In this document: positions 9,754 through 34,896 of the stretch, piece by piece
Numbering within the stretch: the stretch's first letter is position 1
Layout of the letters: every line of letters starts with the position of its first letter
Virus record (IMG/VR): IMGVR_UViG_3300017755_003154
Span: 1-64,000 of that record
Source: a virus
Length of the DNA: 64,000 nt
Strand: one strand, 5' to 3'
Notes under the pieces: generated by a model
Database searches by the model: none
What the model was told of the DNA's origin: nothing
The model's input: the letters and a program-made list of their open reading frames with translations, nothing else
Position numbers and translations under genes: made by a program

Positions 9754-10297
9754 GATGATCTTTATGGTTACCTTCTAATGGTGCTATTAGATTGATCCAT
9801 AAATTGTTAATTGGGCCTTTTAAATCATGTCCAAATAAATTTAATATTCCAAAACCAAGATAGGATAGAACTACTAGCATTAAGTTTATTATAACAGCAT
9901 TCCAACCAAAAGTCAAGAAAGAAATTACCCAATGAGCAATAAAAATATAAGTTCCGTACTTGTGAAAAAACATAACTCTTGGGTTACGTATTAGATCTTT
10001 AATAAATTTACGTGGTATACTATCGACGCTCCAAAGACTAAACAGTATTACATACCATGGATGATTTTTTGAACTATGAGGATCTTTAGTCGTATCAGCA
10101 TACGCATGATGCATACGGTGAACTCCTGCCCAAGTAAGGGCACTTCTTCCGCCACATAGTAATCCTATATATAATAGTATAATCTCTATCAATGAATTTG
10201 TAGTGTAAGATCTATGAGAAAAGTATCGATGATAGCCATAGGTAATGCCTACAAGTGCAAGCACCCAATATGCCATATATCCATAAACTACTATCAT
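9731..10297 (-). CDS. membrane fatty-acid-desaturase-like protein (delta-9-like)
   Basis: Three His boxes (HRYFSH, HRMHH followed by ..D..DPH, HKDHH) and hydrophobic segments. Confidence 0.85.
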   Translation of the reverse strand: MIVVYGYMAYWVLALVGITYGYHRYFSHRSYTTNSLIEIILLYIGLLCGGRSALTWAGVHRMHHAYADTTKDPHSSKNHPWYVILFSLWSVDSIPRKFIKDLIRNPRVMFFHKYGTYIFIAHWVISFLTFGWNAVIINLMLVVLSYLGFGILNLFGHDLKGPINNLWINLIAPLEGNHKDHHEHPQTP

Positions 10298-11313
10298 TTA
10301 ATAATATCTTCCCACTTTGTACCAAACAATTTATCTAATCGTTCAGTAGTTGATTTAAATCTTTCATTAAGATCTTTACTATAACTACTTATCGTATTTA
10401 AAAATACTGCATTATCTTTGTCTTTAATCTGGTCAACATAATCTTTATCAAGTGCTTCTAACCGAAATTCGTCTGGTCCTACAATTGGACATGGTGACCA
10501 ATTGAGGTTCTTTGATTCTGCAAATGCTTTTACGTTTTTCATATCGTGTATGTTATGTGCTTGCACAACTGTATGAATAAAAACTTTACAATTTTTGTGT
10601 TCTTTTCGTAATTCAAGCCATTTATCTATTACTTCTAATTTTTTATCCCAATTTGTACCTTGTCTTACATATTCGTCAACTTTACCAATACCGTCGATAC
10701 TAAGTGCAATTTGTAAGTGGCTAAATTTTTTAAGTTTATCAATATATTTTGTAGGGAAAAGTGTGCAGTTTGTATTAACTTGTAGTCCTATTTCTTTAAG
10801 ATTTGATAACATATCTACAAGAGTTTTAAATTCTTTTGTAACAAAAGGCTCGCCGCCTAAGTATTTTACAAATTTTACGTGTGTCCAATCAATAGTTTTA
10901 ATTACTGCATTAAAATCTTGTTTGGGTATTTCTATTTTATCTACTTCTGCCCATTTACTACTGTACCTAGAATTGCACATTCTGCAAGTAATATTACACT
11001 GGTTACTTACACTTAATTCAACAAACTCAATTTTATCGCTAGTAAACGACCTGTTCATATTTTGTCGCATTGAAGAACGATTAAGTATTGTTTCTTCTTT
11101 CTTACATTCTAAACAACCATCGTCCCAACCAGTTTCCATATTAGATATAATATTTTGAAACCAGTCTGATTTGCGGTATTCGTCAAACGTATAATCATAA
11201 ATGCTAAATTTTTTATGATTCTTTTTATCTGAATTTCCATAACGACAGCAGGGTAAATAATTGCCATCTACACTTATACACAAATGATTTTTTAAAGCAT
11301 TACACTGTGGCAT
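10294..11313 (-). CDS. radical SAM protein with N-terminal twitch/SPASM-like domain
   Basis: N-terminal C..PCC..CLEC; CNITCRMC; GGEP; SIDG. Confidence 0.9.
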   Translation of the reverse strand: MPQCNALKNHLCISVDGNYLPCCRYGNSDKKNHKKFSIYDYTFDEYRKSDWFQNIISNMETGWDDGCLECKKEETILNRSSMRQNMNRSFTSDKIEFVELSVSNQCNITCRMCNSRYSSKWAEVDKIEIPKQDFNAVIKTIDWTHVKFVKYLGGEPFVTKEFKTLVDMLSNLKEIGLQVNTNCTLFPTKYIDKLKKFSHLQIALSIDGIGKVDEYVRQGTNWDKKLEVIDKWLELRKEHKNCKVFIHTVVQAHNIHDMKNVKAFAESKNLNWSPCPIVGPDEFRLEALDKDYVDQIKDKDNAVFLNTISSYSKDLNERFKSTTERLDKLFGTKWEDIIK

Positions 11314-12010
11314 TATTTTTCCTTGTGAAAATACTTAAACCAATTTTACGTGTTATACCTACTGCATTAAAATCGCTTGAACAGTGTAAATCTAAACTAT
11401 CAAAAGATATAATACTTCCAATGCGCCAATCAAAATATTTGTTTACACTTAATCCTTCTAACCATTTTGGTTTTAAATGTGTTAAATGCTTTAATTCGAA
11501 ATCATCTAAGCCGCATATTGCTTTATCTTCAACATCATTATAATTTGTTAAGAATGTATTGTAGTGTACTGGCTTGCCTGTTGTATCTTCTCCGTTAACA
11601 AATTTAGCAGGACCGCCATAATAACTTTGATCAAATACAAAAAATTTTGCTTTATCGCATGTAGCACCTTCTACAAGTAGCGGAATCACAAATGCTTTGT
11701 AACATTGTGGATAATCAAAGTCGTCATCGTTGTGTATTATATGTGGTTTAGTTACATCAAAATAGTGTGCAGAGCGTACCTCAAAGTCTCCGTAGGTTTG
11801 TCTTAGTTTGTCTAAGATATTATCAATGACTCCTTCACCTTCTTTAACATAAAGAACTTTAGGACCTGTAGTTTTTTGTTCAACTTTTTTACTAGAATCA
11901 TTATAGTGTATTAACAGATCAATAATATTTCCATAGTTTAAAATATCCCAATGTTGTTTAGGATCACTCTTTGTACTTTTTATTGCTGTTATTTGCTCTT
12001 GTGTTCTCAT
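11300..12010 (-). CDS. putative Fe(II)/2OG-type oxygenase
   Basis: IIHNDD (HxD), FVIPL, LHCSS, KIGLSIF; similar layout to 5710..6600. Confidence 0.55.
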   Translation of the reverse strand: MRTQEQITAIKSTKSDPKQHWDILNYGNIIDLLIHYNDSSKKVEQKTTGPKVLYVKEGEGVIDNILDKLRQTYGDFEVRSAHYFDVTKPHIIHNDDDFDYPQCYKAFVIPLLVEGATCDKAKFFVFDQSYYGGPAKFVNGEDTTGKPVHYNTFLTNYNDVEDKAICGLDDFELKHLTHLKPKWLEGLSVNKYFDWRIGSIISFDSLDLHCSSDFNAVGITRKIGLSIFTRKNNATV

Positions 12011-12663
12011 ATATTAAATACATCCAAAAAACTTGGTTTGCCTTCTGTACTTTTCTGCTCCCTACTCGGTCTAACAAAATCTATGTTGAATGGTACTTTC
12101 TTGATTGTATCAGTTCTTGGATCTAAATATGTTTCATCATTTGTTCCGTATCCGATACCTATAAGAAATATAGTAGGCATACTAGCATTTATAAGTTCAG
12201 CAATTCGTTGAGGATCATTACCACAGTTTTGACTAATACCTGTATTATACCCTTTGTTTTGTAATCCTAACATAATATATGTTGTCAACATACCTGCTTC
12301 AAAAGCATCCATTCTATCAACCCAAGGAACAGGACGCCTATACACAGGATCATACCTAGTTTCTAAATCTACTACATTACGTTGTCCAATGCCAACAAGC
12401 CAAGGCGCTAGTACTTGAGGATTTCCTGGATCTGTTTCTGCATCATGAGACTTATTTCTATGACAAATAGTCATAATTTCTTTACGTTTTTCTAGATCAC
12501 TATTTTTATACAAAGTTACTTCGTAAGGGTACATAAGATTTTTTGTAGGCACATTTAAATATACTTCTTCAAATACTTCTACTATATCTTCTTTAGGTAT
12601 TTCTTTTGAATAGTCCCATGTAAAATGATTACGGCGTGATTCTATAAGTTCCTTATATTCCAT
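12007..12663 (-). CDS. nitroreductase-family (FMN) protein
   Basis: LIESRRN.., VPTKNLMYPY, EAGM...LGLQNKGYNTG, IGIGY. Confidence 0.7.
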   Translation of the reverse strand: MEYKELIESRRNHFTWDYSKEIPKEDIVEVFEEVYLNVPTKNLMYPYEVTLYKNSDLEKRKEIMTICHRNKSHDAETDPGNPQVLAPWLVGIGQRNVVDLETRYDPVYRRPVPWVDRMDAFEAGMLTTYIMLGLQNKGYNTGISQNCGNDPQRIAELINASMPTIFLIGIGYGTNDETYLDPRTDTIKKVPFNIDFVRPSREQKSTEGKPSFLDVFNI

Positions 12664-13775
12664 TATACTTTCCTTTTTGGTATTTTAGAATCAGCACTAC
12701 TTACACAACTCTTAGTAATACATGTTTTAGGTGTCTTAAACAGTTCGAAACCTGTTTCGATGTTGCCAAGAGGTGCATCATGACACGAATAACTCCTTTT
12801 TACGCTACCGTCTGGCTCGCGTATTATAAGTCCGCTGTAACCGGCGTTACACCGCCATCCCTCGAAATTATTGAAATTAAAGGCATTAAAACGTTCTGCT
12901 TGGTCCATATAGTACTTATTGCCCTTTGAATCTTTAAGTTCTACTTGCATATGCCAAGGTATACTTGTATCTAGTTTGCCTTCTACTCCTTGAGGTATTT
13001 GGAATGATGGCTTAGGCCTTTCTGCCCAAACCCTTTTACTTTCTGTGTAGGCCCTTTGTGGCATTCCGTTCCAGAGTCTTTTAAGATCTTCTTTCTTGTA
13101 TCCATCAACCACTCTTGAGGCTGTTGGATCGGACTGAGGTTTAAGAGTGACGTTGATACCGCGCTCATGGAAGAAGAGAGCGTTTTCCCAATCTCTTTCA
13201 AAATGTTCTGGAACCATAACTTGATTAATTGTAACTTGTACATCGTGCTCCTGACAGAAGATCAACTTGTCTGCAAAGTCTTGCATCTTCTCTTTATTGT
13301 TTACGTGTTCTACGTGCAGACTTGCTGTAATACTTGCTCTATGGAATGGCTTTGCATATTCAACATATGTTTCAAACCACTTCATTGGACGGCTACAATT
13401 AGACGTCATATGCACACTTGTATAATTTGTATTCTCTACATCATCACTAAGGTGTTTTAGAATGTCCAAGTATCCAGGATGGAAAGTAGGCTCTCCTCCC
13501 GACAAGGAGAAGTGGAAACTGTTAAAACCGTTGTCTCTGGCTTGACGTTTAATTTCATCCACTGTACGCAAGCATAACTCGGTAGGTCGGTGATCTTTAC
13601 GATCGGATCTGGCGTAAGGCCAGCAGTACGAGCATCTGTAGTTACAGAATCTCCCCAATAACCATGATACTGTAAATAAATCACGATACAGCAGAGTACG
13701 TTGACCAACACTAACAATGTCGTCAAACGGAATCTTAGTAAAGTCATAGTTGCTCCATTTTAGATCTTCACTCAT
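12663..13775 (-). CDS. radical SAM protein with C-terminal Cys-rich domain
   Basis: WLLGRFCNYRCSYC; SGGEPT; C-terminal CNAG..SC..GNI..C...C. Confidence 0.9.
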   Translation of the reverse strand: MSEDLKWSNYDFTKIPFDDIVSVGQRTLLYRDLFTVSWLLGRFCNYRCSYCWPYARSDRKDHRPTELCLRTVDEIKRQARDNGFNSFHFSLSGGEPTFHPGYLDILKHLSDDVENTNYTSVHMTSNCSRPMKWFETYVEYAKPFHRASITASLHVEHVNNKEKMQDFADKLIFCQEHDVQVTINQVMVPEHFERDWENALFFHERGINVTLKPQSDPTASRVVDGYKKEDLKRLWNGMPQRAYTESKRVWAERPKPSFQIPQGVEGKLDTSIPWHMQVELKDSKGNKYYMDQAERFNAFNFNNFEGWRCNAGYSGLIIREPDGSVKRSYSCHDAPLGNIETGFELFKTPKTCITKSCVSSADSKIPKRKV

Positions 13776-14889
13776 AGTCTATTGTAACATCCTTATTATC
13801 ATTTGTCAAGTTTATCATCTGCCATAGTTCAGGATTATATTCTTTCCAATGTTCACTACGCAATGCATTCATAATAGCATCTTGTTTTAAAAATAAATTA
13901 GTATCTCCGTGTTGTTCTAATTCATAAATTAAACTTACGCCAAATTTATATTTTTTACTCGCTATCTGTTCTGCTAATATTTTTTTAGCCTCTAGAGGTA
14001 AGTGTTTTGTTTGCATATAATCAACATCATCAAGCGGTACATATTCATGATATATTTCTTTTGATTTTGCGTATTCAACCATTTCGTCTAATTTATTAAT
14101 ATTGTATATACTTGCTACGCTATGAATGCTTAGAAACTTCTTATTAACAAATCCTTTAAACCAATCTACAGTTTTTTCAACTTGTTCCCATTTACTACCA
14201 CTACGTAAAAAGTCATTTAATTTTCCATATGCATCTATACTAAGTTTGACTTCTAACCGTTTAACTTGTTCTAGCATGCCTTTTAGTTCATCATCAGGTA
14301 TTACTGTACCATTAGTAATAAGTTGAATATGTAATTGCGAGAGATTGCATTGTTTTAAAATTTTCTTAATAACTTTTTGTTCCATAAGCGGTTCTCCGCC
14401 TAGCAATTTAATAAATTTTAATTTACTAAAATCAGTGTTTTCAATAAAAGGATTTTTAATAATTCCTTTAGGAATTTCTATACCTAACTTCTTTGCATCA
14501 CTATACCAAGATGTACTAAGACCTGGATTGCACATTCTACATTTATTATTACAAGTATTACTGATACTCAAATCTACATATGTAAGTTCCGGTGGGGTGC
14601 CTTCTACTAAACTAGTAGCACCAAATTCTTCATGCTTGTCTAATACAAGTTTTCTAAAACTTTGATTACCAAACTCTTCTTTTTGATAACATTCTTTACA
14701 ACCTTCAACATAAACATCTTTAGACATTTTATCTCTAAGATTTTTCATAAAAGGATGATTGAAAGGATCCTTGTAATCAATATTTAAATCTTCTGGTACA
14801 TCGTCCCATCTGAAAACACAACATGGTAATATTTTACCATCAGGTCTAACAGCCATATGGTTGAACGGTAACGGACATGCATATTTCAT
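13768..14889 (-). CDS. radical SAM protein with N-terminal twitch/SPASM-like domain
   Basis: CPLP..PCC..CKEC; CNNKCRMC; GGEP. Start set at 14889 (TAATG overlap). Confidence 0.9.
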   Translation of the reverse strand: MKYACPLPFNHMAVRPDGKILPCCVFRWDDVPEDLNIDYKDPFNHPFMKNLRDKMSKDVYVEGCKECYQKEEFGNQSFRKLVLDKHEEFGATSLVEGTPPELTYVDLSISNTCNNKCRMCNPGLSTSWYSDAKKLGIEIPKGIIKNPFIENTDFSKLKFIKLLGGEPLMEQKVIKKILKQCNLSQLHIQLITNGTVIPDDELKGMLEQVKRLEVKLSIDAYGKLNDFLRSGSKWEQVEKTVDWFKGFVNKKFLSIHSVASIYNINKLDEMVEYAKSKEIYHEYVPLDDVDYMQTKHLPLEAKKILAEQIASKKYKFGVSLIYELEQHGDTNLFLKQDAIMNALRSEHWKEYNPELWQMINLTNDNKDVTIDYE

Positions 14890-16190
14890 TATGAACCTCG
14901 TTCGTTTGCTAACCAACTAACAAGACGCTTATCTAAATAATCACGGTAGTTTTGGTTGCGTGTAAAGTCAAGCATTTCAATTTCTGCTAGTACTTTTTGG
15001 CGATTTTCTTCATTATTATCAATGCCCATTTGAATCAAACCTTTTGCTTGATCAGTTATTCTTGTTTGAAGTAATGCTTCTTCTAATAGATATTTTGGTA
15101 GATGTTTAAGAGCCGTTCCTTTATCCGTAGGATATACTTCCTGAAAGTTTAATTGTCCTGCAGGTACTTCTCTGTGTGGATGAGCAACTTGTCCGTATCG
15201 ATAGTGTAACGCATCATTAAACTCATGTAAATTGTTTATATCAAAAATATTAAGTGCAGTAAGAACTGTAGTCATTCTTGGAATGTAGATATTTTTCATA
15301 GAAAAATATGCATCTAAACTATCATTTAAATCTTTCCATTTTCCAGGATATCTAATGTATTCCCAAACCTTTCCAACTCCGTCAATAGAAAATGCGTGCC
15401 ATTGTAGTTTGAATTCTTTTAATGTATCAATCATCTTTGGATTGTTAAATTGGGTTGCATTTGTATGGAGATTTAGAATAGTTCGACCAGCGGTGCCATC
15501 ACTTACATATTTTTTAAGTAATTTAATAAACTTGGTATCATACAACGGTTCTCCGCCAGAACATTCAATAACTTTAATTTTATCTGTATTATTCATTAAC
15601 CATTGCCACTGTACAGAGTCTTCATGAATATATCTGTCTTTTATGTTTTCAAATTCCAGACCAATTGTTAAAGTTTCTTCAATCTGTTCAACTCCTATAT
15701 CAGCATCTTTAAGAGTTTTTACATCTTTAAACCATAAGTTTGAGTTGCCTGGATAACACATTCGGCAGGCTAAGTTGCACTCATTTGACGTTGTAATATC
15801 AATAGCAGTTAATGTAGTACTAAGTATACCTTGTTGTACTTCTTTTAATATGCCGGAATGATAAGGATCATTTTGGTTCTGGCGATATGATTTAACTCCG
15901 TTATCTTCAAGGCGCCAGCAAGTTTTACATGCAGGATCTCTAATTCCATTATCAAGATTATCTCGCAACAGTTGCATTCTAGGATGATCAAATATTTCTT
16001 GCGGTGTTAGATCGTTTACATTTGGAATATCAAGTCTACTTGAGCGGTTGCCCCATCCTTCATCATCCGGGTTACCCATCATACAACAAGGCCATGCTTC
16101 ATGCAATTTTCCATTTCGGTATGACTTAATTGCCAAGTTATGATGTGGCATTGAACAATAAGTAGGTGATGTTTTCCACGGCTGGTTCAA
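14889..16190 (-). CDS. radical SAM protein with N-terminal twitch/SPASM-like domain
   Basis: CSMP..PCC..CKTC; CNLACRMC; GGEP; SIDG..EYIR. TTG start in a TTGA overlap. Confidence 0.9.
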   Translation of the reverse strand: MNQPWKTSPTYCSMPHHNLAIKSYRNGKLHEAWPCCMMGNPDDEGWGNRSSRLDIPNVNDLTPQEIFDHPRMQLLRDNLDNGIRDPACKTCWRLEDNGVKSYRQNQNDPYHSGILKEVQQGILSTTLTAIDITTSNECNLACRMCYPGNSNLWFKDVKTLKDADIGVEQIEETLTIGLEFENIKDRYIHEDSVQWQWLMNNTDKIKVIECSGGEPLYDTKFIKLLKKYVSDGTAGRTILNLHTNATQFNNPKMIDTLKEFKLQWHAFSIDGVGKVWEYIRYPGKWKDLNDSLDAYFSMKNIYIPRMTTVLTALNIFDINNLHEFNDALHYRYGQVAHPHREVPAGQLNFQEVYPTDKGTALKHLPKYLLEEALLQTRITDQAKGLIQMGIDNNEENRQKVLAEIEMLDFTRNQNYRDYLDKRLVSWLANERGS

Positions 16191-17365
16191 GCAAGAACCT
16201 CCGGGCGAACTAAATGATTCTTCATAACTTCTTTGTAATTTTCTGGGAATTTACTTTTAGGCGCACATAATCCGCAACCACACACATGCTTAGGGCAAGT
16301 AATAGTTGGCATTGAATCTGTTTCTAATTTTCTAACTAAATCTGCAACAATTTGTTTACCTTCGCTTATTTTACCTATTGGTCCTCTAGTACCGTCAAAA
16401 CGTGCCTGACATGTTTGATGATGGAACACTTGATCTGTTTGCTGTTCTAAATGTAAAAAGAAAAAGTTTACACTACACTGCCAGCCTTTGAATTCACGTA
16501 AGTCAACAAACGTAGCATTACGACTTGCACCTTTGTTTGATAAACACATTTCTCTACTACCGCAACATGGTCGTCCTTCAACAAGTCCTAATTTTTTCTT
16601 TTCATTAGTTTTTTTGCCTGCGGCACTAAGAACCTTAGTAACTTCTTCTTCTTTTTTCTTTTTAGTGTTTAGTTTAGCATTTTTATTTTTCCAAAAATCT
16701 CGCATGTACTGTAATTGTTCATCATTGTATTTGTGTGCAAAACTAGGTTTGCTGTCTGGCTCTTCACCAATAACTCTTGGCACATATTTTATTTCATAAC
16801 TGTCTAACCATTCACATAAATCTTTACATTCATCAAAGTGTTCTGCATGAAACATAACATTTATACTCATTGTTGTTTTGGTTGCAGGACCATCTCTATG
16901 GAATTGTAATATTCTATCACGTACTTGTTGTTTTAATTTTTGTTTACTTTCAGCGTGATAACTTACTGTGATGTGAGCAAAGTTTTCCATAACTTTCTCT
17001 GCCATCTTCTGACCCATTGCTCCGTTACTTGTAAGTGCAAAGTTTGCACTCCATCTATTTTTATACTTTGACTCATATTCGTTTTTCAAATATTGCATAA
17101 AAGGAATAAAGTTAGGATTGACAGTAGGTTCACCGCCAGTAAATCCAATACTAGTACGCTTGAACGAACGATGTTGCATATAAGTATCAATATATTCGTA
17201 TAAGAAATCAGTATTTGCTTTTAATTCATCTAATGTAGCATGTGGACTAAAATTGTCGTGACGTGTTACAGGACAATAAGTGCAATCATAATTGCATCGC
17301 CTACCTAAATCCCAAGTAACTTGGAATACATTACCAGTTTTTAAATCTAATGTATCAAAACTCAT
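16187..17365 (-). CDS. radical SAM protein with C-terminal Cys-rich domain
   Basis: WDLGRRCNYDCTYC; TGGEPT; PCC..C..C..C..CPKHVCGCGLC. Confidence 0.9.
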   Translation of the reverse strand: MSFDTLDLKTGNVFQVTWDLGRRCNYDCTYCPVTRHDNFSPHATLDELKANTDFLYEYIDTYMQHRSFKRTSIGFTGGEPTVNPNFIPFMQYLKNEYESKYKNRWSANFALTSNGAMGQKMAEKVMENFAHITVSYHAESKQKLKQQVRDRILQFHRDGPATKTTMSINVMFHAEHFDECKDLCEWLDSYEIKYVPRVIGEEPDSKPSFAHKYNDEQLQYMRDFWKNKNAKLNTKKKKEEEVTKVLSAAGKKTNEKKKLGLVEGRPCCGSREMCLSNKGASRNATFVDLREFKGWQCSVNFFFLHLEQQTDQVFHHQTCQARFDGTRGPIGKISEGKQIVADLVRKLETDSMPTITCPKHVCGCGLCAPKSKFPENYKEVMKNHLVRPEVLA

Positions 17366-19847: not shown

Positions 19848-21012
19848 CTATTGTTCCTAGATATTCTATCTGTTCAGTTTGTAAAAAATCTACATAGTTT
19901 GTATTATACAATCTATCTTGTAATTGTAAAGTATGAAGTAACTTCTTTTTTACTTTAGATCCTACAGTCTCTGCTGTTGCAATACTACGCAATGCTTTTG
20001 CACTTTGTCTAGCATGATGATCTACTAAACTATCCGTTGTATATTCTTTTTCTAACTGAGTTGCTTGTGTATTAAGTATATTTCTAATATTACTATCTGT
20101 ATTGTATGGCGATATTTCAGAATTTTCTGGTTTAAGGTCTTGATCAGTATATACAGGAATGCCAAGTTTAGCACATTGGTGAATTAGATCAGCAATATTT
20201 GTAGTATTGTAGAAAGAAGCAACTAAAGCAACCATTAGATCAATAGTTGGATATTCTGTCAACGATTTAAGATTAGCATAAACTTTAGGCCAAGAAGCAT
20301 TATGTCTAATATAATCATAAACTTTACCTGTACCATCAATACTCAACAATAATTTTACTTTCTTAAATTTTAGAAGTTTTTGAATTAATGGTTTGTTAAA
20401 TTTTGTACCGTTAGTTGTAAGTTGAATTTCTAATCCGTTAGCATAATTATTATCAATTATCCAATCAAGTAACCCCATAAAATATTTACAAGCAGTAGGT
20501 TCACCTCCTGTAACTTTCCATAATTCTAATCCTTCTTTAACAAGTTTTTTTGTCCATTTTACTTTTCTTAAACTTTCATCTTCTGTTACTTCTGCCCAAC
20601 CACTAGCAATCCATGATGGAAATTCAGTTTGATCTTTATACAACTCTTCTAATTGATCGCTATCTGAAGGTTTACACATTCTACATGCAAGATTACATTT
20701 ATTGCTATATGCAATATCAAGATATTTAATTTTTATTTCTTCTGTATATCCAAATCTTTCAAGTGCTAGTTGTCTATGACTTACCGTATTTCTTTCTTCT
20801 TGTACTTTACATTTTTTACAAATTAAGGGCCAGTGTCCGTCTTTCATTTGTTGACGCATTATATCGTACATACGTGTTTTCAGACCTTTTTCGTAGTTCG
20901 CAAACCGCCAAGAGTTTTCTTTTTCAAATACATGACAACAAGGTGTAGGATGTCCTGTAGACCCTATATATTGATGCATGTAAGGTAAAGGACAATATGT
21001 TTTAGATGTCAT
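19840..21012 (-). CDS. radical SAM protein with N-terminal twitch/SPASM-like domain
   Basis: CPLP..PCC..CKKC; CNLACRMC; TGGEP; SIDG..YIR. Confidence 0.9.
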   Translation of the reverse strand: MTSKTYCPLPYMHQYIGSTGHPTPCCHVFEKENSWRFANYEKGLKTRMYDIMRQQMKDGHWPLICKKCKVQEERNTVSHRQLALERFGYTEEIKIKYLDIAYSNKCNLACRMCKPSDSDQLEELYKDQTEFPSWIASGWAEVTEDESLRKVKWTKKLVKEGLELWKVTGGEPTACKYFMGLLDWIIDNNYANGLEIQLTTNGTKFNKPLIQKLLKFKKVKLLLSIDGTGKVYDYIRHNASWPKVYANLKSLTEYPTIDLMVALVASFYNTTNIADLIHQCAKLGIPVYTDQDLKPENSEISPYNTDSNIRNILNTQATQLEKEYTTDSLVDHHARQSAKALRSIATAETVGSKVKKKLLHTLQLQDRLYNTNYVDFLQTEQIEYLGTIDA

Positions 21013-22414
21013 TAAAAATGTCCTTCATTTCTGGAAATGTTTCTGCGAAGGAAATACTACGTTGCGTGTCACACAAAGTTAAAAATTCTTTCATCTCTGG
21101 TAATCGTCTAGACCAGTCTTCACTTTCCATAAATTGTAGCATACCATTTAGTCTGCTGATGCCATAACTAGCATTACGCCATTTATCGTAATCAACTTTA
21201 CCTTTATGCCAACTAGGTACTCCTTTTTCCCAATTTGCTTCCCACCACGGATACCATGCTTCGTATTTTTTTCTGCATTTTTCTTTAAACCATTTAGGCA
21301 AAATTTTAACATTAAGATGTGGTGGATGATAAACAAAATGATAATTTATTGCTCCTGCTCCAAACGGCCACATATTAATTTTTTTAAAACCTTGTTCTAG
21401 TTTCCATTGAATAAAATCTGGCAAGTAATATATGTTTAGTGCTTGTACTGCACAAGCAACTGTTACTTCTGTGTTGTTAGGTGTTTCGTTATCTAGTATA
21501 TGAAACACTTCTTCTTGACGTTTCCAATTACTAGGGTAGCGAATATAATCGTTCATTTCTTTAATACTATCAATTGAATAATGAAAACGCACTAGTTTAA
21601 ATTCTTTCCATAAGTCAAACAAGTCATCACGCCATTCAACACCATTTGAATTATAACGTAATTCTAAATCTTTTGCATAACCCATTTTAATTGCATGTTC
21701 AAGTATTTCGTAGTGTTCTTCAATAATAAGACTTTCACCGCCTGCAAAATATATTTGTTGCATACTTGGCATTTGCTCATAAAACTGTTTCCAAAATGTA
21801 GGATTTTGTTTGTGCCAATTGTAACTACTGCCGTTAAAACTTCCTTTGTCTTTCCATTGCATTGTTTCTTTTAGGCTTTCATCTTGCACTGCTGGAAAAA
21901 TTGCTTTGTAATCTTTTATCCAACCACTTGAATCGTGTGGTGAACACATAACACAAGCAAGTTGACATTTGGTTCCAAAACGTAAATCAATATATGCTAA
22001 TTGTGGAGGTACTGATCCATCTTCTTTTGTATCTGCAACAATTTTGTCAACATCAACTCTTTGAGCCCAATACGCTGTTTCCCACATACGCTTTGAATTA
22101 TGGCCTGCGGCTTCTTCCTTGTAACACTTAATACAACTTGGAGGCATTTCACCATTAAGCATTTGCTTACGCACATTCTTCATATATGTACTGTTCCACG
22201 CTGTTTCAAAGTCACTAACATTTAAGTTGTTAGGTCTTCCTTGTTCATCTTTTAATATGCCAACTTGTCCTCCATGTTCTTTATCATTTGTAGGACCAAC
22301 TGAACTTGCATTTGCTGTACAGCATACTCGCATACTACCGTCAGGTCTAGTACTTAAATGTACCCAAGGTAGTAAGCAGAATGTTTCTGAGGGATATTTT
22401 GTTTTTTCTGTCAT
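21002..22414 (-). CDS. radical SAM protein with N-terminal twitch/SPASM-like domain
   Basis: CLLPW..VCC..CIKC; CQLACVMC; AGGES; SIDS..YIRYP. Confidence 0.9.
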   Translation of the reverse strand: MTEKTKYPSETFCLLPWVHLSTRPDGSMRVCCTANASSVGPTNDKEHGGQVGILKDEQGRPNNLNVSDFETAWNSTYMKNVRKQMLNGEMPPSCIKCYKEEAAGHNSKRMWETAYWAQRVDVDKIVADTKEDGSVPPQLAYIDLRFGTKCQLACVMCSPHDSSGWIKDYKAIFPAVQDESLKETMQWKDKGSFNGSSYNWHKQNPTFWKQFYEQMPSMQQIYFAGGESLIIEEHYEILEHAIKMGYAKDLELRYNSNGVEWRDDLFDLWKEFKLVRFHYSIDSIKEMNDYIRYPSNWKRQEEVFHILDNETPNNTEVTVACAVQALNIYYLPDFIQWKLEQGFKKINMWPFGAGAINYHFVYHPPHLNVKILPKWFKEKCRKKYEAWYPWWEANWEKGVPSWHKGKVDYDKWRNASYGISRLNGMLQFMESEDWSRRLPEMKEFLTLCDTQRSISFAETFPEMKDIFNDI

Positions 22415-22425
22415 TATATATGTAC

Positions 22426-23487
22426 TTATCTCATGGTTTCTTCATGTATCTGATTGTTGATAGTGCTAATAATATTTTGTTTACAATGGTGTACACACTT
22501 ATCAAATATTTCTGTTTGTATTGTATCATGTAAATTACTGTACCAAGGTGAGTCTAAAATTTCCTGAAAGTTTTTTCCGTTACCAAGGTGAATGTCTTTA
22601 AAATTGTATTTTTTATTATAGGTCTTTTCTAAATCTGTTATATGTGCTTCTGTACCCCACCAACAGCAAGGAAGCACTGCTCCTTTTACTGTTATATACA
22701 ATCCTGAATCTAATCCAAAGTAATCTGGTCTTTGAAGTGCTTTACATACAATTTTCTTTGTTGTTTTCTTTGTATCTAATTCATGTTTGCCTGTGCCTGG
22801 AGTTACAATCTTATGTATTCTTGACTTTGTGCCTCTAAATTTTATACGCTCAAATCCTTCATCAATACTCCGTTGCCTTGCTAGTTCATCTTGATGTTCG
22901 TTGTGTTTAAAATATATAAACTGCCAACTTGCTCTACCGCCTGCGGCAATGTATGTTCTAAAATTTTCTTGTAGTTTATTCCAGTCTACATTTCTTCTAT
23001 ATAAATGATTAGTGTCTTCTAATCCATCAATACCAAAAATTACATTCAATCGTTGTATTGTTCCTGGATTTGTAGTGCCGCGCCGAGGTGCTTTTAAATA
23101 TTGATATTTGTCGGCAAGTTTTCCTAGTTTCCTCCAAAAATCTTTATTCCTTGTACCACCATTAGTAGCAATGTTAACTTGTAATTGCCGACTAAATATT
23201 CCGCTTTCAAAAATCCATTCAATAATATCTAAAAGGTGAGGATTTGTAGTTGGTTCGTCATAGTTACCGCAAAAATCAATTAGTCTTAGACTCCAAAAAA
23301 AGTCTCCGTTGTCAAACCATTTTTTAAATGTTTCTAAACTTACATATGTGTCGTTAATTCCAATATGTTGTTTGTCATCTTTTGTTATGCTTTTTTCTCT
23401 CGCACACGCCGGGCACCTAGCATTACAATAGTTGCTTATTTCTAATTGTATTTTTTTAACTTCTTTTATATTAGCAGGCCAACTCAT
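22426..23487 (-). CDS. radical SAM protein with C-terminal twitch/SPASM-like domain
   Basis: CNARCPAC; FCGNYDEP; IDGL..NHLYR; C..PCC..CVHHC. Confidence 0.9.
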   Translation of the reverse strand: MSWPANIKEVKKIQLEISNYCNARCPACAREKSITKDDKQHIGINDTYVSLETFKKWFDNGDFFWSLRLIDFCGNYDEPTTNPHLLDIIEWIFESGIFSRQLQVNIATNGGTRNKDFWRKLGKLADKYQYLKAPRRGTTNPGTIQRLNVIFGIDGLEDTNHLYRRNVDWNKLQENFRTYIAAGGRASWQFIYFKHNEHQDELARQRSIDEGFERIKFRGTKSRIHKIVTPGTGKHELDTKKTTKKIVCKALQRPDYFGLDSGLYITVKGAVLPCCWWGTEAHITDLEKTYNKKYNFKDIHLGNGKNFQEILDSPWYSNLHDTIQTEIFDKCVHHCKQNIISTINNQIHEETMR

Positions 23488-24143
23488 TTATATCTTCCGA
23501 ATCCCCAGTACCTTTCTCGGCACCACCAACACTCTTCGCAATGTTTTTCTATATTATATTTTTCATGTTTTTCCCATGCTTCGCAACTACGAGTAATTGG
23601 AAATAATGTATCCATAACTCCTAGTGTATTATAAAGTTCTGCAACACCCTTCTTATCAATATTAACTAATGGATTTCTTGTTAGCCTATTTTTAGTAGGA
23701 AATTTTTTTCCATTCCTGTTATCTGATGGACCTGTATGCGGTAACCATTGTCTATATATTTTTTTAGGAGGATTAGAAGTAATGCCACTATATATAATCT
23801 TTGCTGGCGTATTAGCCCTTGTTTCATCAACCAATGTATCTTGTGACGAAACATACTTGTTCAATTGGCTTGCATGACTTGTTTGATGTTCTACAAATAT
23901 ATCTCCAAACTCGTTTTTTAAAAATTCTAGTACACGTTTAGCATATATTAATTGATATTGTTTCCCTGCAAGTGTAGTTGTAATAGGCATAATCTTAATA
24001 TCAGGTCTTTCTTCTACAACAAATTTTGATAACATATAACCAACAATAGCACTATCAGCGCCTCCGGAAACTTTATATCCTAAAGTTGTTGTTGATTCGT
24101 CTTCGACTATGTGTATATCTTGTTGGCTATTTTTAATAATCAT
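23484..24143 (-). CDS. QueC-like PP-loop ATP pyrophosphatase
   Basis: VSGGADS PP-loop; NPLVNIDKK; TRSC..CEECWWC. Start set at 24143 (ATGA overlap). Confidence 0.7.
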   Translation of the reverse strand: MIIKNSQQDIHIVEDESTTTLGYKVSGGADSAIVGYMLSKFVVEERPDIKIMPITTTLAGKQYQLIYAKRVLEFLKNEFGDIFVEHQTSHASQLNKYVSSQDTLVDETRANTPAKIIYSGITSNPPKKIYRQWLPHTGPSDNRNGKKFPTKNRLTRNPLVNIDKKGVAELYNTLGVMDTLFPITRSCEAWEKHEKYNIEKHCEECWWCRERYWGFGRYK

Positions 24144-24712
24144 AATTTTATACACTCCACGTTAGTATATTTTTGGATTATATCACATCTACCTTGTATC
24201 CTGTATAATCCAAATTTAATATATAAAATATCTCCACAATTAATTCTTCTTGTTGATCCTATGTAATCATGGTTAATATAGTAGTCAACGTTTATTGATT
24301 TATTATTAGTATATTCTACGTCTGCTTTTAAATTAAATTTTAATTCTGCTGGTACTGGATTGTGATCTTTTATAGCAGGAAACGAATTAATATTAAAATG
24401 TCCGTTTACAATGTTAAGCATACTAGGAGGTATTCCGGGATCATCACACCCATCATGTATTTGGAATACTGTAGCCCGGTGAGCATGAAATACTATGGGT
24501 GTTATAAATTCTACATCTGCTGAAAAATGATACTTACCAATTGCTAACTTACGTGTTGTTACTTCGTTACGCTCTTTATAGTCTGCTATTTTTATACCAC
24601 GCTCGTATTGAGGTTTATCATCTGTGTCTACAGTACCTTTTGCGTTTCTAAAAACATATGTATTGCCATCCTGCTCATATGTGCTGGACCATACTGGAAA
24701 AAAGTCTATCAT
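24140..24712 (-). CDS. polysaccharide-lyase-like beta-jelly-roll protein
   Basis: ERNE, FQIH and YIKFGLYR resemble the RxE, QxH and YFKxGxY motifs of PL7-type lyases. Confidence 0.55.
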   Translation of the reverse strand: MIDFFPVWSSTYEQDGNTYVFRNAKGTVDTDDKPQYERGIKIADYKERNEVTTRKLAIGKYHFSADVEFITPIVFHAHRATVFQIHDGCDDPGIPPSMLNIVNGHFNINSFPAIKDHNPVPAELKFNLKADVEYTNNKSINVDYYINHDYIGSTRRINCGDILYIKFGLYRIQGRCDIIQKYTNVECIKL

Positions 24713-25665
24713 AATTTCTCCTTAACAAATTTATCTCTTATCTTTTCTGCACAAGTACTTTCACACTTAGGAATACGCACATCGTCAGTCCAACTGTCTT
24801 TGATACCATTCCAAACTTTACTATTCATTGCTTGATCTAAAGTTACATTTTTAAGATTGATATCATACATGTAATCATGCTGTGTAAGTAAATCTTCAAA
24901 CTTATCTTTATGCTTACCACTAACAGGAAATTCTAACATTTTGCTATTCAAATGACAGCATGGAATAACATTACCCATATGATTTACAAATATACGTTTT
25001 TGATTTGCGTACTTACAACTAATACATGCACGTTCTCCAGGATTACGATCTGCTTTTGCTCTTTTATGTTTAACTTCTTTAGTATCTTTACGATGACTAA
25101 TAATAGTTTTGAAATCTCTGAAGCCTTCGTCTTTAGCCATTTGCTTTGCAGTTTCTAGTTGATGTTCGTTATGTTCAAAACTAATAAACTGCCAAACACT
25201 TTGTCCGCCAGCGGCAATAAACGCCTTAAAATTTTGTTGTACTTTCTTAAAACTTGAACCTTCTCTGTATACTTCTGATAGTTCATCACTTCCGTCAATA
25301 CCCCAAGTCACTCTATGACTGCATGTTAATTCTTTTGCTAGTTTTTCCCACCACGCTGTAGTGCGTAAACTTCCATTAGTAGCAATATTAATATGACATC
25401 CCCAACTAGCAAAGTGTTTAATAATTTCATGGAACTGAGGATGACTGCACGGTTCGTCTACACTGCCACAAAAATTAATAATCTTCATATTTGGAAACAT
25501 ATGTTTTTGGAACTTTTCTTTTATAGTATCCAAGTCAAGATATGTTTTATTAAGTATGTCGTCTTTATAATCTGATAGCACACGAAAACAGCCTTTGCAT
25601 TTAATATTACAAAAACTTGTAAGTTCGATATCAATCCATTCTAATGTTTCACTTGACCATGTCAT
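24709..25665 (-). CDS. radical SAM protein with C-terminal twitch/SPASM-like domain
   Basis: CNIKCKGC; FCGSVDEP; IDG..YR; C..PCC..CESTC. Start set at 25665 (ATGA overlap). Confidence 0.9.
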   Translation of the reverse strand: MTWSSETLEWIDIELTSFCNIKCKGCFRVLSDYKDDILNKTYLDLDTIKEKFQKHMFPNMKIINFCGSVDEPCSHPQFHEIIKHFASWGCHINIATNGSLRTTAWWEKLAKELTCSHRVTWGIDGSDELSEVYREGSSFKKVQQNFKAFIAAGGQSVWQFISFEHNEHQLETAKQMAKDEGFRDFKTIISHRKDTKEVKHKRAKADRNPGERACISCKYANQKRIFVNHMGNVIPCCHLNSKMLEFPVSGKHKDKFEDLLTQHDYMYDINLKNVTLDQAMNSKVWNGIKDSWTDDVRIPKCESTCAEKIRDKFVKEKL

Positions 25666-26750
25666 TCGAAGCACCATCCTATTATTTTTTTACTATCTGT
25701 TTTACGTTTTACATCTAAGTCTAATAAAAATTGTTGCATCTTTTTATTATATTCATCGTCATATGCGTAGTCGCTACAAAAATGTTTTAACTCAGGTACA
25801 GTAGTAGTTTCTAAAACTTTTTCTACAACACTTGGTTTTAAACAGTTAATTCTCAAATGGCGAGGAGCATGAAGTTTATGTATATCATATCTGCCATTCC
25901 ATCTATCTTTAATATTACTAACAAGAGTATCAATGTTAGGTAAATTCATTGCTTGTACAGTTATATTAAAGTATATGTCTTCAGTATCAAGTTGCATTAA
26001 TTCATCTGTTTGTTCTATAAAAGTATTATGATTAGTAGGAAATCTAATTAATTCATTTACATCACCCCAACCATCTATACTCATACTAAATTCTAATCTT
26101 TTAAACTTTGATAAAATATTTAAAAATTTTGGAGTATTACTTATACCGTTAGTTTGAATCTGTATCCTAGTATTTTCACAATTCCATTTGTGCTTAGATA
26201 AGTCACCTAAAAATTTATGTACATTTTTCATATAAAAAGGTTCGCCACCTGCTATATAAATGTATTCTGCCTTATCTACAACTTTTGTATAGACCCAATC
26301 CCAGTCAATATCTTCTCGTACTCTTCCAATATCTCTTAATTTATAATTATACTTCTGCCATATTTCTGCATCTTCCATCCATTTGCTACTATTTGCAGGA
26401 TTGCACATTGCACATTTTAAATTACATGTGTTACTAGGTCTTAGATCCCATCTAATAATACCTTTGTCAAAACCTTTTTGTAAACTACGCTTTCGTTTGC
26501 TTTCTTTGCCTAGTTCTTCATTCCTTATGCAATCTATACACTCTGGACGTTTCCAGTTTGTAGCAAATTTTTGTCTTATAGCATTAATATAAGGATTAGA
26601 TAATAAGTCTTCAATATTTTTTACACCAGTTACCTCATCATTTTTAAAGAGACAACATGGTTGTGCATTATATCCTTGGTCAGTGAGTTCTACATATAAA
26701 CTATTCACTGATTCTAAGCACTTATATTGCTTCAACTTTTTCATTTTCAT
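25662..26750 (-). CDS. radical SAM protein with N-terminal twitch/SPASM-like domain
   Basis: C..PCC..CIDC; CNLKCAMC; AGGEP; SIDG..IRFP. Confidence 0.9.
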   Translation of the reverse strand: MKMKKLKQYKCLESVNSLYVELTDQGYNAQPCCLFKNDEVTGVKNIEDLLSNPYINAIRQKFATNWKRPECIDCIRNEELGKESKRKRSLQKGFDKGIIRWDLRPSNTCNLKCAMCNPANSSKWMEDAEIWQKYNYKLRDIGRVREDIDWDWVYTKVVDKAEYIYIAGGEPFYMKNVHKFLGDLSKHKWNCENTRIQIQTNGISNTPKFLNILSKFKRLEFSMSIDGWGDVNELIRFPTNHNTFIEQTDELMQLDTEDIYFNITVQAMNLPNIDTLVSNIKDRWNGRYDIHKLHAPRHLRINCLKPSVVEKVLETTTVPELKHFCSDYAYDDEYNKKMQQFLLDLDVKRKTDSKKIIGWCFE

Positions 26751-27828
26751 CTCTTATTTCGTTATGATAGGCTTTATTGTAAGCACAAGTTCTAATACAT
26801 CTTTTTAAATGCTTTGGATGAGTTGGATTCCAACTGTCTCCAAGGATTTTTTTATACCAAGGATGTTGCATAATTTCAGTTATACTTTTATCTTTAAGAC
26901 TATTCCAACCAGTACCGTATTCAGCAAGTTTTTCATTTATATTATCGTTACCCTTTGCCGCCCAGTCGCTTAAAAAACAACAAGGCCACATTGTTAAGTT
27001 AGCCGCAATAAATATTTCTCCTTCGTGTATATATTTGCATTGTATTGTTTGTAATACTTCTACTGTTTCTTTTTCTGTTTTATTTTCTTTAGCAATAAAC
27101 TTATCAAGTTCTTTCACTTGTTCTACTTTACTGTGTTCTTTTTTTCCTGTAGTAGTAATAACCTTTTCTGTAGTGACAACTTTCTTTTGCTTATGATCTT
27201 TCTTTTTAATTTTAGCCGTCCATTGATGGAAACTATTACGCATACCTGTACGAGTTGCAAAATTAAATCCTAAACGTTTTGCATGTTCTCTTGCCGCTTC
27301 AAGTTCATGTTCATTATGATCAAAAACAATAAACACCCACTTCGCTCGATATACATATTCGCCTACAGTTTCTACAAAAGCATTCATATTTCTTTCTAAT
27401 ACTTTCCATTTTGTGTTTACTCTGTAAATATGATTAGTTTGTTCATGCCCGTCTATACACCAATGTAAATGAAACCGCTTTTCGTGGTCGTGACAAAGTT
27501 GCCCTATTTTACGCCACATGTCTGCTGTGCCGACTGCACCATTAGTACTGATGCTACACACTGCTCCACACAATAATAGATATTCTAGCATTTCAGCAAA
27601 CTCAGGATGTATTGCAGGATCTCCTAATACCCCACAAAATTTAAATTCTACTCCTTGATAACTATTAGGTGGAAAAATTCTTTTTAGATCAGCAAAACTA
27701 AAGTCTTGTACTTTAAGTGTTCCGTCAATAGCGGCATCAGTTCTTGCACAACCAGGGCAAGCCGCATTGCAGTTACTTGTAATTTCTAATTCTACTTTTT
27801 TTAAATCAGAAATATCTGTTAAAATCAT
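26722..27828 (-). CDS. radical SAM protein with C-terminal twitch/SPASM-like domain
   Basis: CNAACPGC; FCGVLGDP; IDG..NHIYR; C..PCC..CIRTC. Confidence 0.9.
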   Translation of the reverse strand: MILTDISDLKKVELEITSNCNAACPGCARTDAAIDGTLKVQDFSFADLKRIFPPNSYQGVEFKFCGVLGDPAIHPEFAEMLEYLLLCGAVCSISTNGAVGTADMWRKIGQLCHDHEKRFHLHWCIDGHEQTNHIYRVNTKWKVLERNMNAFVETVGEYVYRAKWVFIVFDHNEHELEAAREHAKRLGFNFATRTGMRNSFHQWTAKIKKKDHKQKKVVTTEKVITTTGKKEHSKVEQVKELDKFIAKENKTEKETVEVLQTIQCKYIHEGEIFIAANLTMWPCCFLSDWAAKGNDNINEKLAEYGTGWNSLKDKSITEIMQHPWYKKILGDSWNPTHPKHLKRCIRTCAYNKAYHNEIRDENEKVEAI

Positions 27829-28907
27829 TTAAACTGCTCCGCATACGGATCAAATTCGCTACCACATTTTTGGGCGCAAACGCCTAATTTACCATCGGCA
27901 ATACTATCTTTTTGCCAACTTGTAGTAATACTATTGATCAATTTTCCGTTAACCACGTGTTTAATGTCGTTATCAATAATACTTATGCCATCCTTGCCGC
28001 CAGCACTATCTATATGATCCCATACTTGTTCTACACGAGGATCAGCATGCCACCATTTGTACATGCGTCCAGCAGTCCAACAACATGGCATTAATAATCC
28101 TTCTGCTGTTACAAATATGCTTCCTTGCTTTGCCACCTTACAAGTTATACTACACTTATCTAAATAATCTTTCATACTTCCGTAAGATTTTTCAATTTCT
28201 TTTTGTTTTAATAATGCTAAATTTTTATTCTTTTCATCTTTAGGCTGTGCTAGATTTTGTGTTTCAGCACCTTTTCGATTTACTGCTTGGTGTGATGTTT
28301 TAGGTTTGATATCACTTGTAATAAATCTACCTGATTTTTTCTTAATAAACTTTTCACACCCCCATTGATTAGCAAGTGCTTCTGCTTCTTCAACTTGATG
28401 TTCGTTGTGTTGAAATATTAAAAAGTCCCAACGGGCTCTACCGCCTGCGTCAATAAATGCTTGCATGTTTCTTTCAACGTTATTCCATACAACATTTTGT
28501 CTATACAAATGATTAGTATCACGTAATCCGTCAACACTAAAAATTACTGCTCCTCTACGTCCTATTACTTGTGCTAATCTTGCCCACCAGTAAATATCTT
28601 TAGCACCTGCATTAGTATTCATACTAAGCCACATATTAGGATTATGTTCTCTAAAATATTCAAATACTTCTAATGTATCTCGTGCAACAATAGGATCTCC
28701 TAAGTTACCACACATATACATTACATTTAATTGCTTAATAAAGTCAGGACTAAACATACGCTTTGCATCTGCTAAACTAAGTTCAGCATTTGTTATGTGA
28801 GGATTATCTGCGCCACCATTCATATTACGGTCGCACATAGGACAAGCCGCTTGACACTTCTGCGTAATTTCTAAGTGTACTTCTTTTATGTCTTCGTATC
28901 TATACAT
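27825..28907 (-). CDS. radical SAM protein with C-terminal twitch/SPASM-like domain
   Basis: CQAACPMC; MCGNLGDP; VDGL..NHLYR; C..PCC..CAQKC. Confidence 0.9.
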   Translation of the reverse strand: MYRYEDIKEVHLEITQKCQAACPMCDRNMNGGADNPHITNAELSLADAKRMFSPDFIKQLNVMYMCGNLGDPIVARDTLEVFEYFREHNPNMWLSMNTNAGAKDIYWWARLAQVIGRRGAVIFSVDGLRDTNHLYRQNVVWNNVERNMQAFIDAGGRARWDFLIFQHNEHQVEEAEALANQWGCEKFIKKKSGRFITSDIKPKTSHQAVNRKGAETQNLAQPKDEKNKNLALLKQKEIEKSYGSMKDYLDKCSITCKVAKQGSIFVTAEGLLMPCCWTAGRMYKWWHADPRVEQVWDHIDSAGGKDGISIIDNDIKHVVNGKLINSITTSWQKDSIADGKLGVCAQKCGSEFDPYAEQFK

Positions 28908-34844: not shown

Positions 34845-34864
34845 AATTTCTCCATATAATTACT

Positions 34865-34893
34865 ATTATACGGCAAAACTGCTAGAAAGTCAA
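34865..34893 (-). promoter_or_regulatory. near-consensus sigma70 promoter heading the enzyme operon
   Basis: Minus strand TTGACT (34893-34888), 17-bp spacer, TATAAT (34870-34865), then GGAG RBS and ATG at 34844. Confidence 0.85.
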
Positions 34894-34896
34894 GTA

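Follow-up and report, generated by a model that had tools for sequence, protein, structure and literature searches.

A cassette mosaic of radical SAM enzymes around a conserved trio in a giant marine phage, with counterparts in bacterial chromosomes

The DNA analysed here, hereafter the window, is the opening 64 kb of a virus record of 84,063 bp (IMG/VR IMGVR_UViG_3300017755_003154; CheckV completeness 18%). Between positions 10294 and 28907 its minus strand carries an array of 13 genes for radical S-adenosylmethionine (SAM) enzymes. The source is an uncultured, marine, T4-like giant phage: the record encodes a gp25 baseplate protein, a tail-collar protein, an Mtd_N fibre protein, a gp6-type baseplate wedge, a late sigma factor, SbcCD-type nucleases and a gp20-type portal, whose nearest relatives are those of the jumbo phages Phosso, Atu_ph07 and PA5oct (48–53% identity). 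From 34543 down to 4997 every gene lies on the minus strand. Genes overlap or are spaced by at most 11 nt within two blocks (4997–28907 and 29112–34543), which are parted by one 204-nt gap (28908–29111). The 13 radical SAM genes are part of one ~30-kb operon (34543 to 4997) in the host-recognition region, directly behind the tail-fibre genes. Megablast of the 18.6-kb array against 50,697 phage records gave no match. A tblastn search with a 693-aa open reading frame (ORF) of the contig had none either. The stretch 19000–28999 was recovered near-identical and almost complete in 14 DNA runs of seven studies.

Among the 31 minus-strand ORFs between 4997 and 36787 checked for the CxxxCxxC motif, exactly 13 contain it, once each, and all of these lie within 10294–28907, where they make up 13 of the 17 ORFs (the other four being 11300, 12007, 23484 and 24140). 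Radical SAM genes are denoted here by r, and other genes by g, with their lower coordinate. All 13 match the Pfam model Radical_SAM (PF04055; E ≤ 7.8e-4) and ten exceed its gathering score of 29.5 bits; the three below it, r22426 (26.0), r26722 (20.1) and r27825 (24.7), can be aligned end to end with r24709, whose own score (37.6) is above it. The frames, 322–830 aa long, are all intact, and all-versus-all BLASTP gives 19–34% identity within groups. An initial annotation of this DNA had described 13 intact, clearly diverged enzymes without frameshifts, in three architectures. Its count and its reading of the frames stand, and the same seven ORFs with an N-terminal twitch-like domain, four with a C-terminal one and two of a W-x-LGR-x-CNY type were recovered.

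Group A (r10294, r13768, r14889, r17355, r19840, r21002 and r25662) bears a C...PCC...CxxC block N-terminal to the SAM motif. Its seven members all pass the cut-off of the NCBIfam model NF033640 ('N_Twi_rSAM'; 170 bits) with 182–419 bits, against 28–59 bits for the six remaining radical SAM ORFs. Cysteines C13, C31, C32, C94 and C97 of the block are invariant in 24 sequences, with r17355 retaining only three; an N-terminal Pfam SPASM match exceeds its cut-off in r13768 (23.0 bits) and r21002, and the block aligns weakly with the C-terminal twitch domain of BtrN (E 0.003). Group B (r22426, r24709, r26722 and r27825) aligns over its full length and ends in a PCC...CxxxC block, with four invariant C-terminal cysteines and one found in three of the four members; SPASM is above cut-off in r22426 only (22.0 bits at residues 260–335) and below it in r24709 (18.2 bits). 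Group C (r12663 and r16187) shares W-x-LGR-x-CNY and three invariant C-terminal cysteines. The seven-cysteine motif of SPASM proper, with its two auxiliary clusters, is absent from group A, which has five cysteines, and from group B; the four to five conserved cysteines of these groups fit one auxiliary cluster and thus a twitch-like domain.

Membership of each enzyme in a well-characterised family with a known housekeeping function would have refuted the initial annotation; none of the 13 ORFs reaches the equivalog cut-off of any characterised family. Their best viperin, MoaA, QueE, BlsE and maturase scores cover the generic radical SAM core only. With the viperin profiles (NF038283, cut-off 180; TIGR04278, cut-off 450), the scores are 39.1 bits for r12663 and 41.6 for r16187, over positions 3–79 and 4–122 of 281, and the QueE_Clost score is 37.8 bits against a cut-off of 260. 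The six ORFs outside group A represent two other architectures that fit no curated family. A sequence search against the PDB returned generic radical SAM matches for group A and one weak match for r24709, and no match for r12663, g33719, g12007 (E 0.34 only) or the methyltransferase-like tail of g29112.

Relatives of r21002, which we call R0, are encoded in 233 viral contigs and in 2,102 protein clusters at E ≤ 1e-5. The window was compared with the best 80 of these 233 viral loci, all chosen via R0 and 83–96% identical to it, and with nine loci from metagenome-assembled genome (MAG) records, giving 90 loci. Their 634 radical SAM ORFs form 95 clusters at 40% identity and 70% coverage, counts that depend on our own crude ORF calling and on these thresholds. 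A viral locus of ~21 kb holds 2–13 radical SAM ORFs (median 8, 80 loci). One gene order recurs: two genes with GT-A glycosyltransferase domains and a repeat-methyltransferase gene (clusters 25, 2 and 3), then R1, R0 and R4, with variable genes between them. The R1 type (r27825) is present in 81 of the 90 loci and R0 in all 90 by construction, and 42 of the 46 members of the R4 cluster (r12663) are radical SAM ORFs.

The core of the system consists of these three genes, one per architecture, with two GT-A domains and a methyltransferase-like protein. R1 (27825–28907, minus strand, as are all operon genes below) is the first radical SAM gene of the operon and belongs to group B, with CQAACPMC at residue 18; R0 (21002–22414) is of group A and scores 418.9 bits with NF033640; R4 (12663–13775), of group C, has CNYRCSYC at residue 44. 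The window's other ten radical SAM genes are cassettes, and the pool to which they belong comprises at least 95 radical SAM clusters. Cassettes stand between and after the frame genes and comprise further radical SAM enzymes, often with a PP-loop ATPase, an Fe(II)/2-oxoglutarate-type oxygenase or other partners. In more distant loci (L093, L094, L095, L097 and L098) R0, R1 and R4 stand side by side and no more. The turnover is rapid: radical SAM content is the same only at R0 identities above 98%, its median Jaccard index between locus pairs is 0.17 at 90–95% R0 identity, and a close relative (L002, R0 95% identical) is without r25662, g24140 and r14889. The term 'expansion', used in the initial annotation, is therefore misleading, because the array is a cassette mosaic around a conserved trio rather than the product of local duplications.

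A maximum-likelihood tree was built for 58 group-A sequences by a quick search, with SH-aLRT as its only support measure. No two of the seven window paralogues are sisters in it; each groups instead with a cluster of other phages. Bacterial sequences are scattered among the viral ones, the 18 bacterial rows requiring 14 label changes where shuffling gives 15.6 on average. Orthologues in the bacterial chromosomal island described below are 65% (r12663), 61% (r21002), 44% (r27825) and 41% (r16187) identical, well above the 19–34% among window paralogues. Nei–Gojobori pairwise omega against orthologues has medians of 0.07–0.24 for 11 of the 13 genes (0.07 for R0 and R4, 0.17 for R1), values that are rough because dS, at ~1.4–1.7, is near saturation; r10294 and r14889 had no orthologue at the threshold of this analysis in the fetched loci. 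The paralogues are ancient, individually conserved and common to phages and bacterial chromosomes. The omega values indicate purifying selection, and the copies do not evolve neutrally, which would have counted against the initial annotation. Its proposal that the array is old and selected agrees with these comparisons. It had further proposed that each enzyme may have a substrate or site of its own, or that the enzymes may act as hetero-oligomeric partners.

Upstream of R1 lies the frame gene g29112 (29112–32444), encoding a 1110-aa protein with two GT-A domains, nine 23-aa helical repeats and a methyltransferase-like domain. Many relatives have it split into three genes (clusters 25, 2 and 3), and the window form is a fusion. 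The DGD motif of the GT-A domain is invariant in 12 sequences, and an AlphaFold2 model shows a confident GT-A fold (pLDDT 84). Its best VIA match is a Leptospira glycosyltransferase (Z 9.9, root-mean-square deviation (rmsd) 3.2, 138 aligned residues), tied with many GT2-type enzymes and with nucleotidyltransferases that share this fold. In Atlas searches the matches were all viral 'hypothetical protein' clusters, apart from Methyltransf_31 in 21% of the members of one cluster, which for the tail of g29112 is only a lead. At the operon head, g32916 and g33719 (32916–34543) encode two paralogous DxD proteins, probably glycosyltransferases, for which no family match, Pfam included, was found. The nine tandem repeats of g29112 (29800–30500; N-x-H-S-L-F-R-L-L-G-D-E-x-E-x-L-R-K) follow the second GT-A domain and precede the methyltransferase-like one; they are less numerous in the split form (cluster 3) and could be a spacer or ruler.

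GT-A domains also adjoin R0 in L092, L093 and L094, and a similar arrangement exists in a cultured phage. ORF346–355 of Ralstonia phage RsoM2USA (MG752970.1) follow the gene order of the window: first a fibre-like gene, then genes for two DxD proteins, GT-A1, a radical SAM gene, GT-A2 and a methyltransferase-like gene. Identities to the window are 31–35% for the DxD proteins (33719 and 32916), 43% for GT-A1, 47% for GT-A2 and 27% for the methyltransferase-like protein. Unlike the window, RsoM2USA has a single radical SAM gene, of the N-twitch type, and is without R1 and R4. It was the only match of GT-A1 among the 50,697 phage records. The genes of its block are all annotated as hypothetical, and the passages found in the paper on this phage do not discuss them (PMC8504454). 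The cultured Vibrio phage K566 (L105, 255 kb) has four N-twitch-type radical SAM genes close together at 8995–15731, three annotated as radical SAM and one as hypothetical, among neighbours that are all hypothetical.

The array has a counterpart in bacteria. Contig C34 (349 kb) of the MAG record G003 is a true chromosome, with tuf, rpoB/rpoC-sized genes and ribosomal protein L2 in an S10-like operon. It contains a ~47-kb island (about 146000–195300; L102, L092 and L103) with at least 15 CxxxCxxC ORFs. The island includes three GT-A genes of the g29112 type, TauD-like, AspH-like, desaturase-like and PP-loop genes, a B12-binding radical SAM and a SET/GNAT protein; a UDP-sugar dehydrogenase, an R1-like gene, a GT2 enzyme with C-terminal membrane segments and a PMT_2-type GT-C enzyme follow in a row at one of its ends. 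It lies between tuf and a small-ORF cluster preceding rpoB/rpoC, a normally highly conserved neighbourhood. A second record, G002, labelled Bdellovibrionia, has ~17 CxxxCxxC ORFs within 30 kb of a 917-kb contig (C1). A portal query had no match in G002, G003 or G005.

The neighbourhood was replicated in five further bacterial genomes with an R0 orthologue. An R4 orthologue (57–68% identity) adjoins R0 in all five and an R1 orthologue (43–47%) in four, and a GT-A gene lies within 5 kb of R0 in three and within 15 kb in four. The possibility that R1 acts behind a UDP-sugar dehydrogenase, as the order in G003 would have it, was dropped, since no dehydrogenase lies near the trio in any of the five. 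Directly upstream of the R4–R0–R1 trio of L097 is a 982-aa bacterial protein (5146–8094, plus strand) that begins and ends with GT2 domains and has a CxxxCxxC motif in its central region, an arrangement that mirrors the GT-A1, radical SAM, GT-A2 order of RsoM2USA; that the central region is a radical SAM domain could not be shown.

Across sampled genomes of the phylum of G002, NF033640 is above its cut-off in 45 of 201, against 0 of 14 control genomes. This distribution bears on the idea that the phage genes are copies of host cofactor or Fe–S enzymes that boost host metabolism. Such a housekeeping or auxiliary role would be in line with a grouping of phage radical SAM genes with Fe–S assembly genes as Fe–S-related metabolism (PMC5332604, in the part of that paper available to us). 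The missing equivalog matches, the 14 negative control genomes and the 95 fast-turnover clusters, which such a role does not predict, make it highly improbable. The very large demand for Fe–S clusters and SAM that the initial annotation foresaw is plausible, yet an A-type Fe–S carrier was found in only one of five large incomplete relatives and MetK in none of the five.

The cassettes of the window differ widely in their distribution. In group B, r26722 (26722–27828; omega 0.22) belongs to a cluster found in 40 of the 90 loci, r24709 (24709–25677), which matches phrog_21308 (E 1.6e-36), to one found in 21, and r22426 (22426–23487) to one found in eight. The group-A cassettes r13768 (13768–14916; NF033640 241.3 bits), r25662 (25662–26750; 208.7 bits) and r19840 (19840–21012; 222.8 bits) have clusters in 19, nine and five loci, respectively. 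At the 40%/70% threshold r14889 (14889–16190; 235.2 bits) and r10294 (10294–11313; 182.1 bits) are singletons, the former 44% identical to its nearest viral cluster and the latter with one tblastn orthologue at 61% identity. The second group-C gene, r16187 (16187–17365), has its cluster in 39 loci. Within the array, g24140 (24140–24712) encodes a 190-aa protein with no Pfam, NCBIfam or PHROG match and no orthologue in the 80 viral loci.

Two genes of the array encode PP-loop parts. The 830-aa protein of r17355 (17355–19847) is a group-A radical SAM enzyme (NF033640 198 bits at residues 19–428) fused to a C-terminal PP-loop domain, which matches ATP_bind_3 weakly (16.1 bits) and is 48% identical to a stand-alone PP-loop protein of other phages (cluster 8). 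The product of g23484 (23484–24155) is PP-loop ATPase-like, with an SGGxDS motif and a C-terminal CxxCxxCxER; it scores 23.3 bits with QueC, over the last 55 profile positions only, and 18.7 bits with NAD_synthase.

The operon ends in a distal tailoring block (4997–12663) with two AspH-like genes, a TauD-like, a membrane desaturase-like, a cupin-like and a possible nitroreductase-like gene, in which r10294 is embedded. Its membrane fatty-acid-desaturase-like and AspH/LpxO-family ORFs, the presence of GDGT-MAS/Tes among sequence and fold matches and the ArnT-like GT-C gene of the G003 island would all suit a tailoring of lipid A or another membrane lipid by desaturase-like, LpxO/AspH-like and Tes-like radical SAM enzymes. 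We consider this quite improbable: the block that holds the lipid-type genes is the least conserved one, with orthologues of its genes in only 1–12 of the 80 viral loci, all other operon proteins are predicted to be soluble, and the Tes matches span the generic radical SAM core only.

Promoter motifs were used as a guide to the timing of expression. The canonical T4 late-promoter octamer TATAAATA has a single occurrence in the window, where ~14 would be expected, and because of this rarity ATAAATA was used instead. All seven minus-strand ATAAATA sites of the contig lie just upstream of structural genes (35893, 36824, 38330, 42809, 61238, 61723 and 78631), and none was found in the 353-nt leader of the operon (34544–34896) or in the operon's two gaps. 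The eight best sigma-70-like sites of the 84-kb contig each match at least 11 of 12 positions. Two of them lie in the leader (11 of 12 each), three inside the operon on the sense strand, and two precede the late-sigma and SbcD-like genes. From the sigma-70-like sites and the missing late motif we infer that the operon is probably transcribed early by the host RNA polymerase. Short near-identical contigs in four RNA-labelled runs of three studies are spread along the operon (12–26 of 30 bins) and are compatible with its transcription; parts of the operon without cover in these runs carry no information.

Predicted early promoters would also suit a pathway that makes a hypermodified base or nucleotide, for phage DNA or counter-defence, by means of radical SAM enzymes, PP-loop ATPases, oxygenases and GT-A enzymes. 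Phage DNA hypermodification pathways with oxygenases, glycosyltransferases and radical SAM enzymes are known, and the QueC-like PP-loop proteins and the weak viperin-, MoaA- and QueE-like N-terminal matches of group C and r10294 fit this reading. Those scores are far under the cut-offs (viperin 39–42 against 180 bits, QueE 37.8 against 260), and bacterial chromosomes carry the same island next to envelope genes of the GT2 and GT-C types; DpdA, FolE, QueD and a DNA-binding partner were not seen among the ORFs scanned, in which no search was aimed at them. On balance a nucleotide or DNA substrate is unlikely.

Three features lie outside the operon. Flanked by the gp6-like wedge gene and the tail-collar genes is a single 4940-aa ORF (42806–57628, minus strand). 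It matches FG-GAP and CBM_5_12 and, weakly, DUF2460, and is probably a giant baseplate or fibre protein. An ORF with a DUF2201_N metallopeptidase and a VWA-like domain (152–1447, plus strand), upstream of the Mtd_N fibre gene (2996–4996) and on the strand opposite to the operon, has a 35%-identical homologue near R0 in L096. In two phage contigs binned into MAGs (G001:C300, 39522–42524; G004:C104, 5716–8532) the portal match falls into two pieces ~1.2 kb apart, both inside one open frame (1013 or 1044 aa), a pattern suggestive of an insertion that keeps the reading frame of the portal gene and is possibly an intein.

The fold of R0 was compared with that of known enzymes. The AlphaFold2 model (mean pLDDT 85) has the sugar-acting BlsE (Z 10.5, rmsd 4.1, 215 aligned residues) and DesII (Z 10.2) as its best VIA matches. 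The best Foldseek E-values are those of SkfB and CteB, with TM-scores of ~0.3. As a discriminator between sugar- and peptide-acting relatives the two methods were set aside, since they gave no separation.

The Foldseek results belong to a reading in which the radical SAM and AspH-like enzymes act on a RiPP-like peptide (one made by the ribosome and modified after translation) or on a protein of the virion, for example a tail fibre or the 4940-aa protein, which the GT-A enzymes would glycosylate. Peptides or proteins are the substrates of most SPASM/twitch enzymes that have been characterised. The best Foldseek matches of the GT-A model are the peptide S-glycosyltransferases SunS and ThuS, the operon has two AspH-like genes and stands behind tail-fibre genes, and the bacterial island encodes a SET/GNAT protein. 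Against this, TM-scores are only ~0.3 and VIA ties all radical SAM classes, no protease, exporter or transporter family is present among the operon ORFs, and the predicted early promoters are unlike those expected for late virion-protein expression. No candidate precursor was found: the 204-nt gap holds only a 79-aa TTG frame without support, and no convincing small ORF was found in the two operon gaps, small ORFs not having been searched systematically across loci. We regard modification of a protein or peptide as possible, if rather unlikely.

We favour instead, with a probability of roughly 0.4, a reading in which the radical SAM array carries out the radical tailoring of a predicted sugar-bearing substrate. 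The assignment to a glycosyl-transfer pathway is made because the trio is repeatedly linked to GT-A genes in phages, in bacteria and, for R0, in RsoM2USA. The GT-A domain has the GT-A fold and an invariant DGD motif, and GT-A genes are neighbours of R0 in the window, in L092–L094, in RsoM2USA and in three to four of the five further bacterial genomes.

Several observations weigh against a sugar substrate. The BlsE and DesII matches of R0 are within 1 Z unit of CteB, SkfB, SuiB, viperin, MoaA and anSME, so that the fold is indecisive on the substrate, peptide- and nucleotide-acting enzymes being similarly close. In the surroundings of the trio in the five further genomes the UDP-sugar dehydrogenase is missing (0 of 5) and a GT-C gene lies within ~11 kb in only two, and in L095, L096, L097 (for the query used), L098 and G116 no GT-A gene was found up to 10 kb from the trio. 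No flippase, transporter, polymerase or initiating transferase is present in the phage operon, and no genes for nucleotide-sugar synthesis, export or ligation were found among its ORFs scanned. AspH-like hydroxylases and the SET/GNAT protein of the bacterial island suit protein substrates as well. The promoter assignment consists of consensus matches, and the RNA-labelled contigs are no proof of transcription.

If sugar tailoring is nevertheless correct, each radical SAM enzyme would contain the SAM cluster and one auxiliary, twitch-type cluster and would perform a different C–H-activating step, such as an epimerisation, deoxygenation, decarboxylation or C–C/C–X bond formation. As substrate they would use a scaffold that bears sugar and that the GT-A enzymes make or handle. 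Should scaffold and differing steps both be as supposed, the set of cassettes in a given phage would fix the fine structure of a glycan or glycoconjugate, and the product may decorate the host envelope or the virion. The sole predicted membrane protein of the phage operon is the desaturase-like ORF; with nearly all proteins predicted to be soluble and no transporter, polymerase or initiating transferase encoded, the acceptor may be cytoplasmic, or host machinery may finish the product.

Beyond this, we tentatively propose, as a possible but doubtful extension, that giant phages and the bacterial phylum of G002 share a combinatorial glycan-editing system. In it the fixed trio and the GT-A transferases would make a scaffold, to which any of about a hundred swappable radical SAM cassettes would contribute a radical modification of its own; this would generate a fast-changing surface or virion glycan code in phage–host recognition.

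Twitch-type radical SAM enzymes catalyse some of the hardest reactions in biology, and about a hundred clusters of them, all uncharacterised, occur in a single abundant lineage of marine phages. If sugar editing is true, the island is a new source of glycan chemistry and offers phages a new way to vary their own or their host's display; if the combinatorial proposal is true as well, the cassette pool is a large reservoir of sugar radical chemistry. The question is experimentally approachable, because a version with one radical SAM gene (RsoM2USA) and bacterial chromosomal versions exist.

Among known families, the seven group-A ORFs of the window belong to NF033640, an NCBIfam subfamily model without an assigned function. 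No characterised member of it was found, and the phrase 'N-terminal twitch' was met in no paper in the literature searched. With the SPASM/twitch enzymes of solved structure (BtrN, BlsE, DesII, anSME, CteB, SkfB, SuiB and MoaA) the window enzymes have in common the radical SAM core and one auxiliary cysteine block, and R0 aligns with them at VIA Z-scores of 9.4–10.5 over 194–235 residues. Group A differs from them in its inverted domain order, with 9–17% identity and Foldseek TM-scores of ~0.3, and the window enzymes are without a RiPP recognition element.

Our literature searches found no description of the trio, the cluster pool, the bacterial counterpart or their function. High radical SAM counts in marine T4-like phages are already published, as the available parts of two papers show (PMC5332604, PMC7029224). 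The host-recognition cluster of pelagimyophages contains radical SAM cassettes (Zaragoza-Solas et al. 2020, PMC7029224); the portal of the window phage is nearest to jumbo phages and not to pelagimyophages, and the trio, the architectures and the bacterial counterpart are not described in the text of that paper accessible to us. A 183-kb T4-like environmental viral genome carries 12 radical SAM genes (Nishimura et al. 2017, PMC5332604), which the sections consulted read as Fe–S-related metabolism, without array structure or families. That genome is, by the same sections, marine and T4-like, as is the window phage, and has a comparably high number of radical SAM genes.

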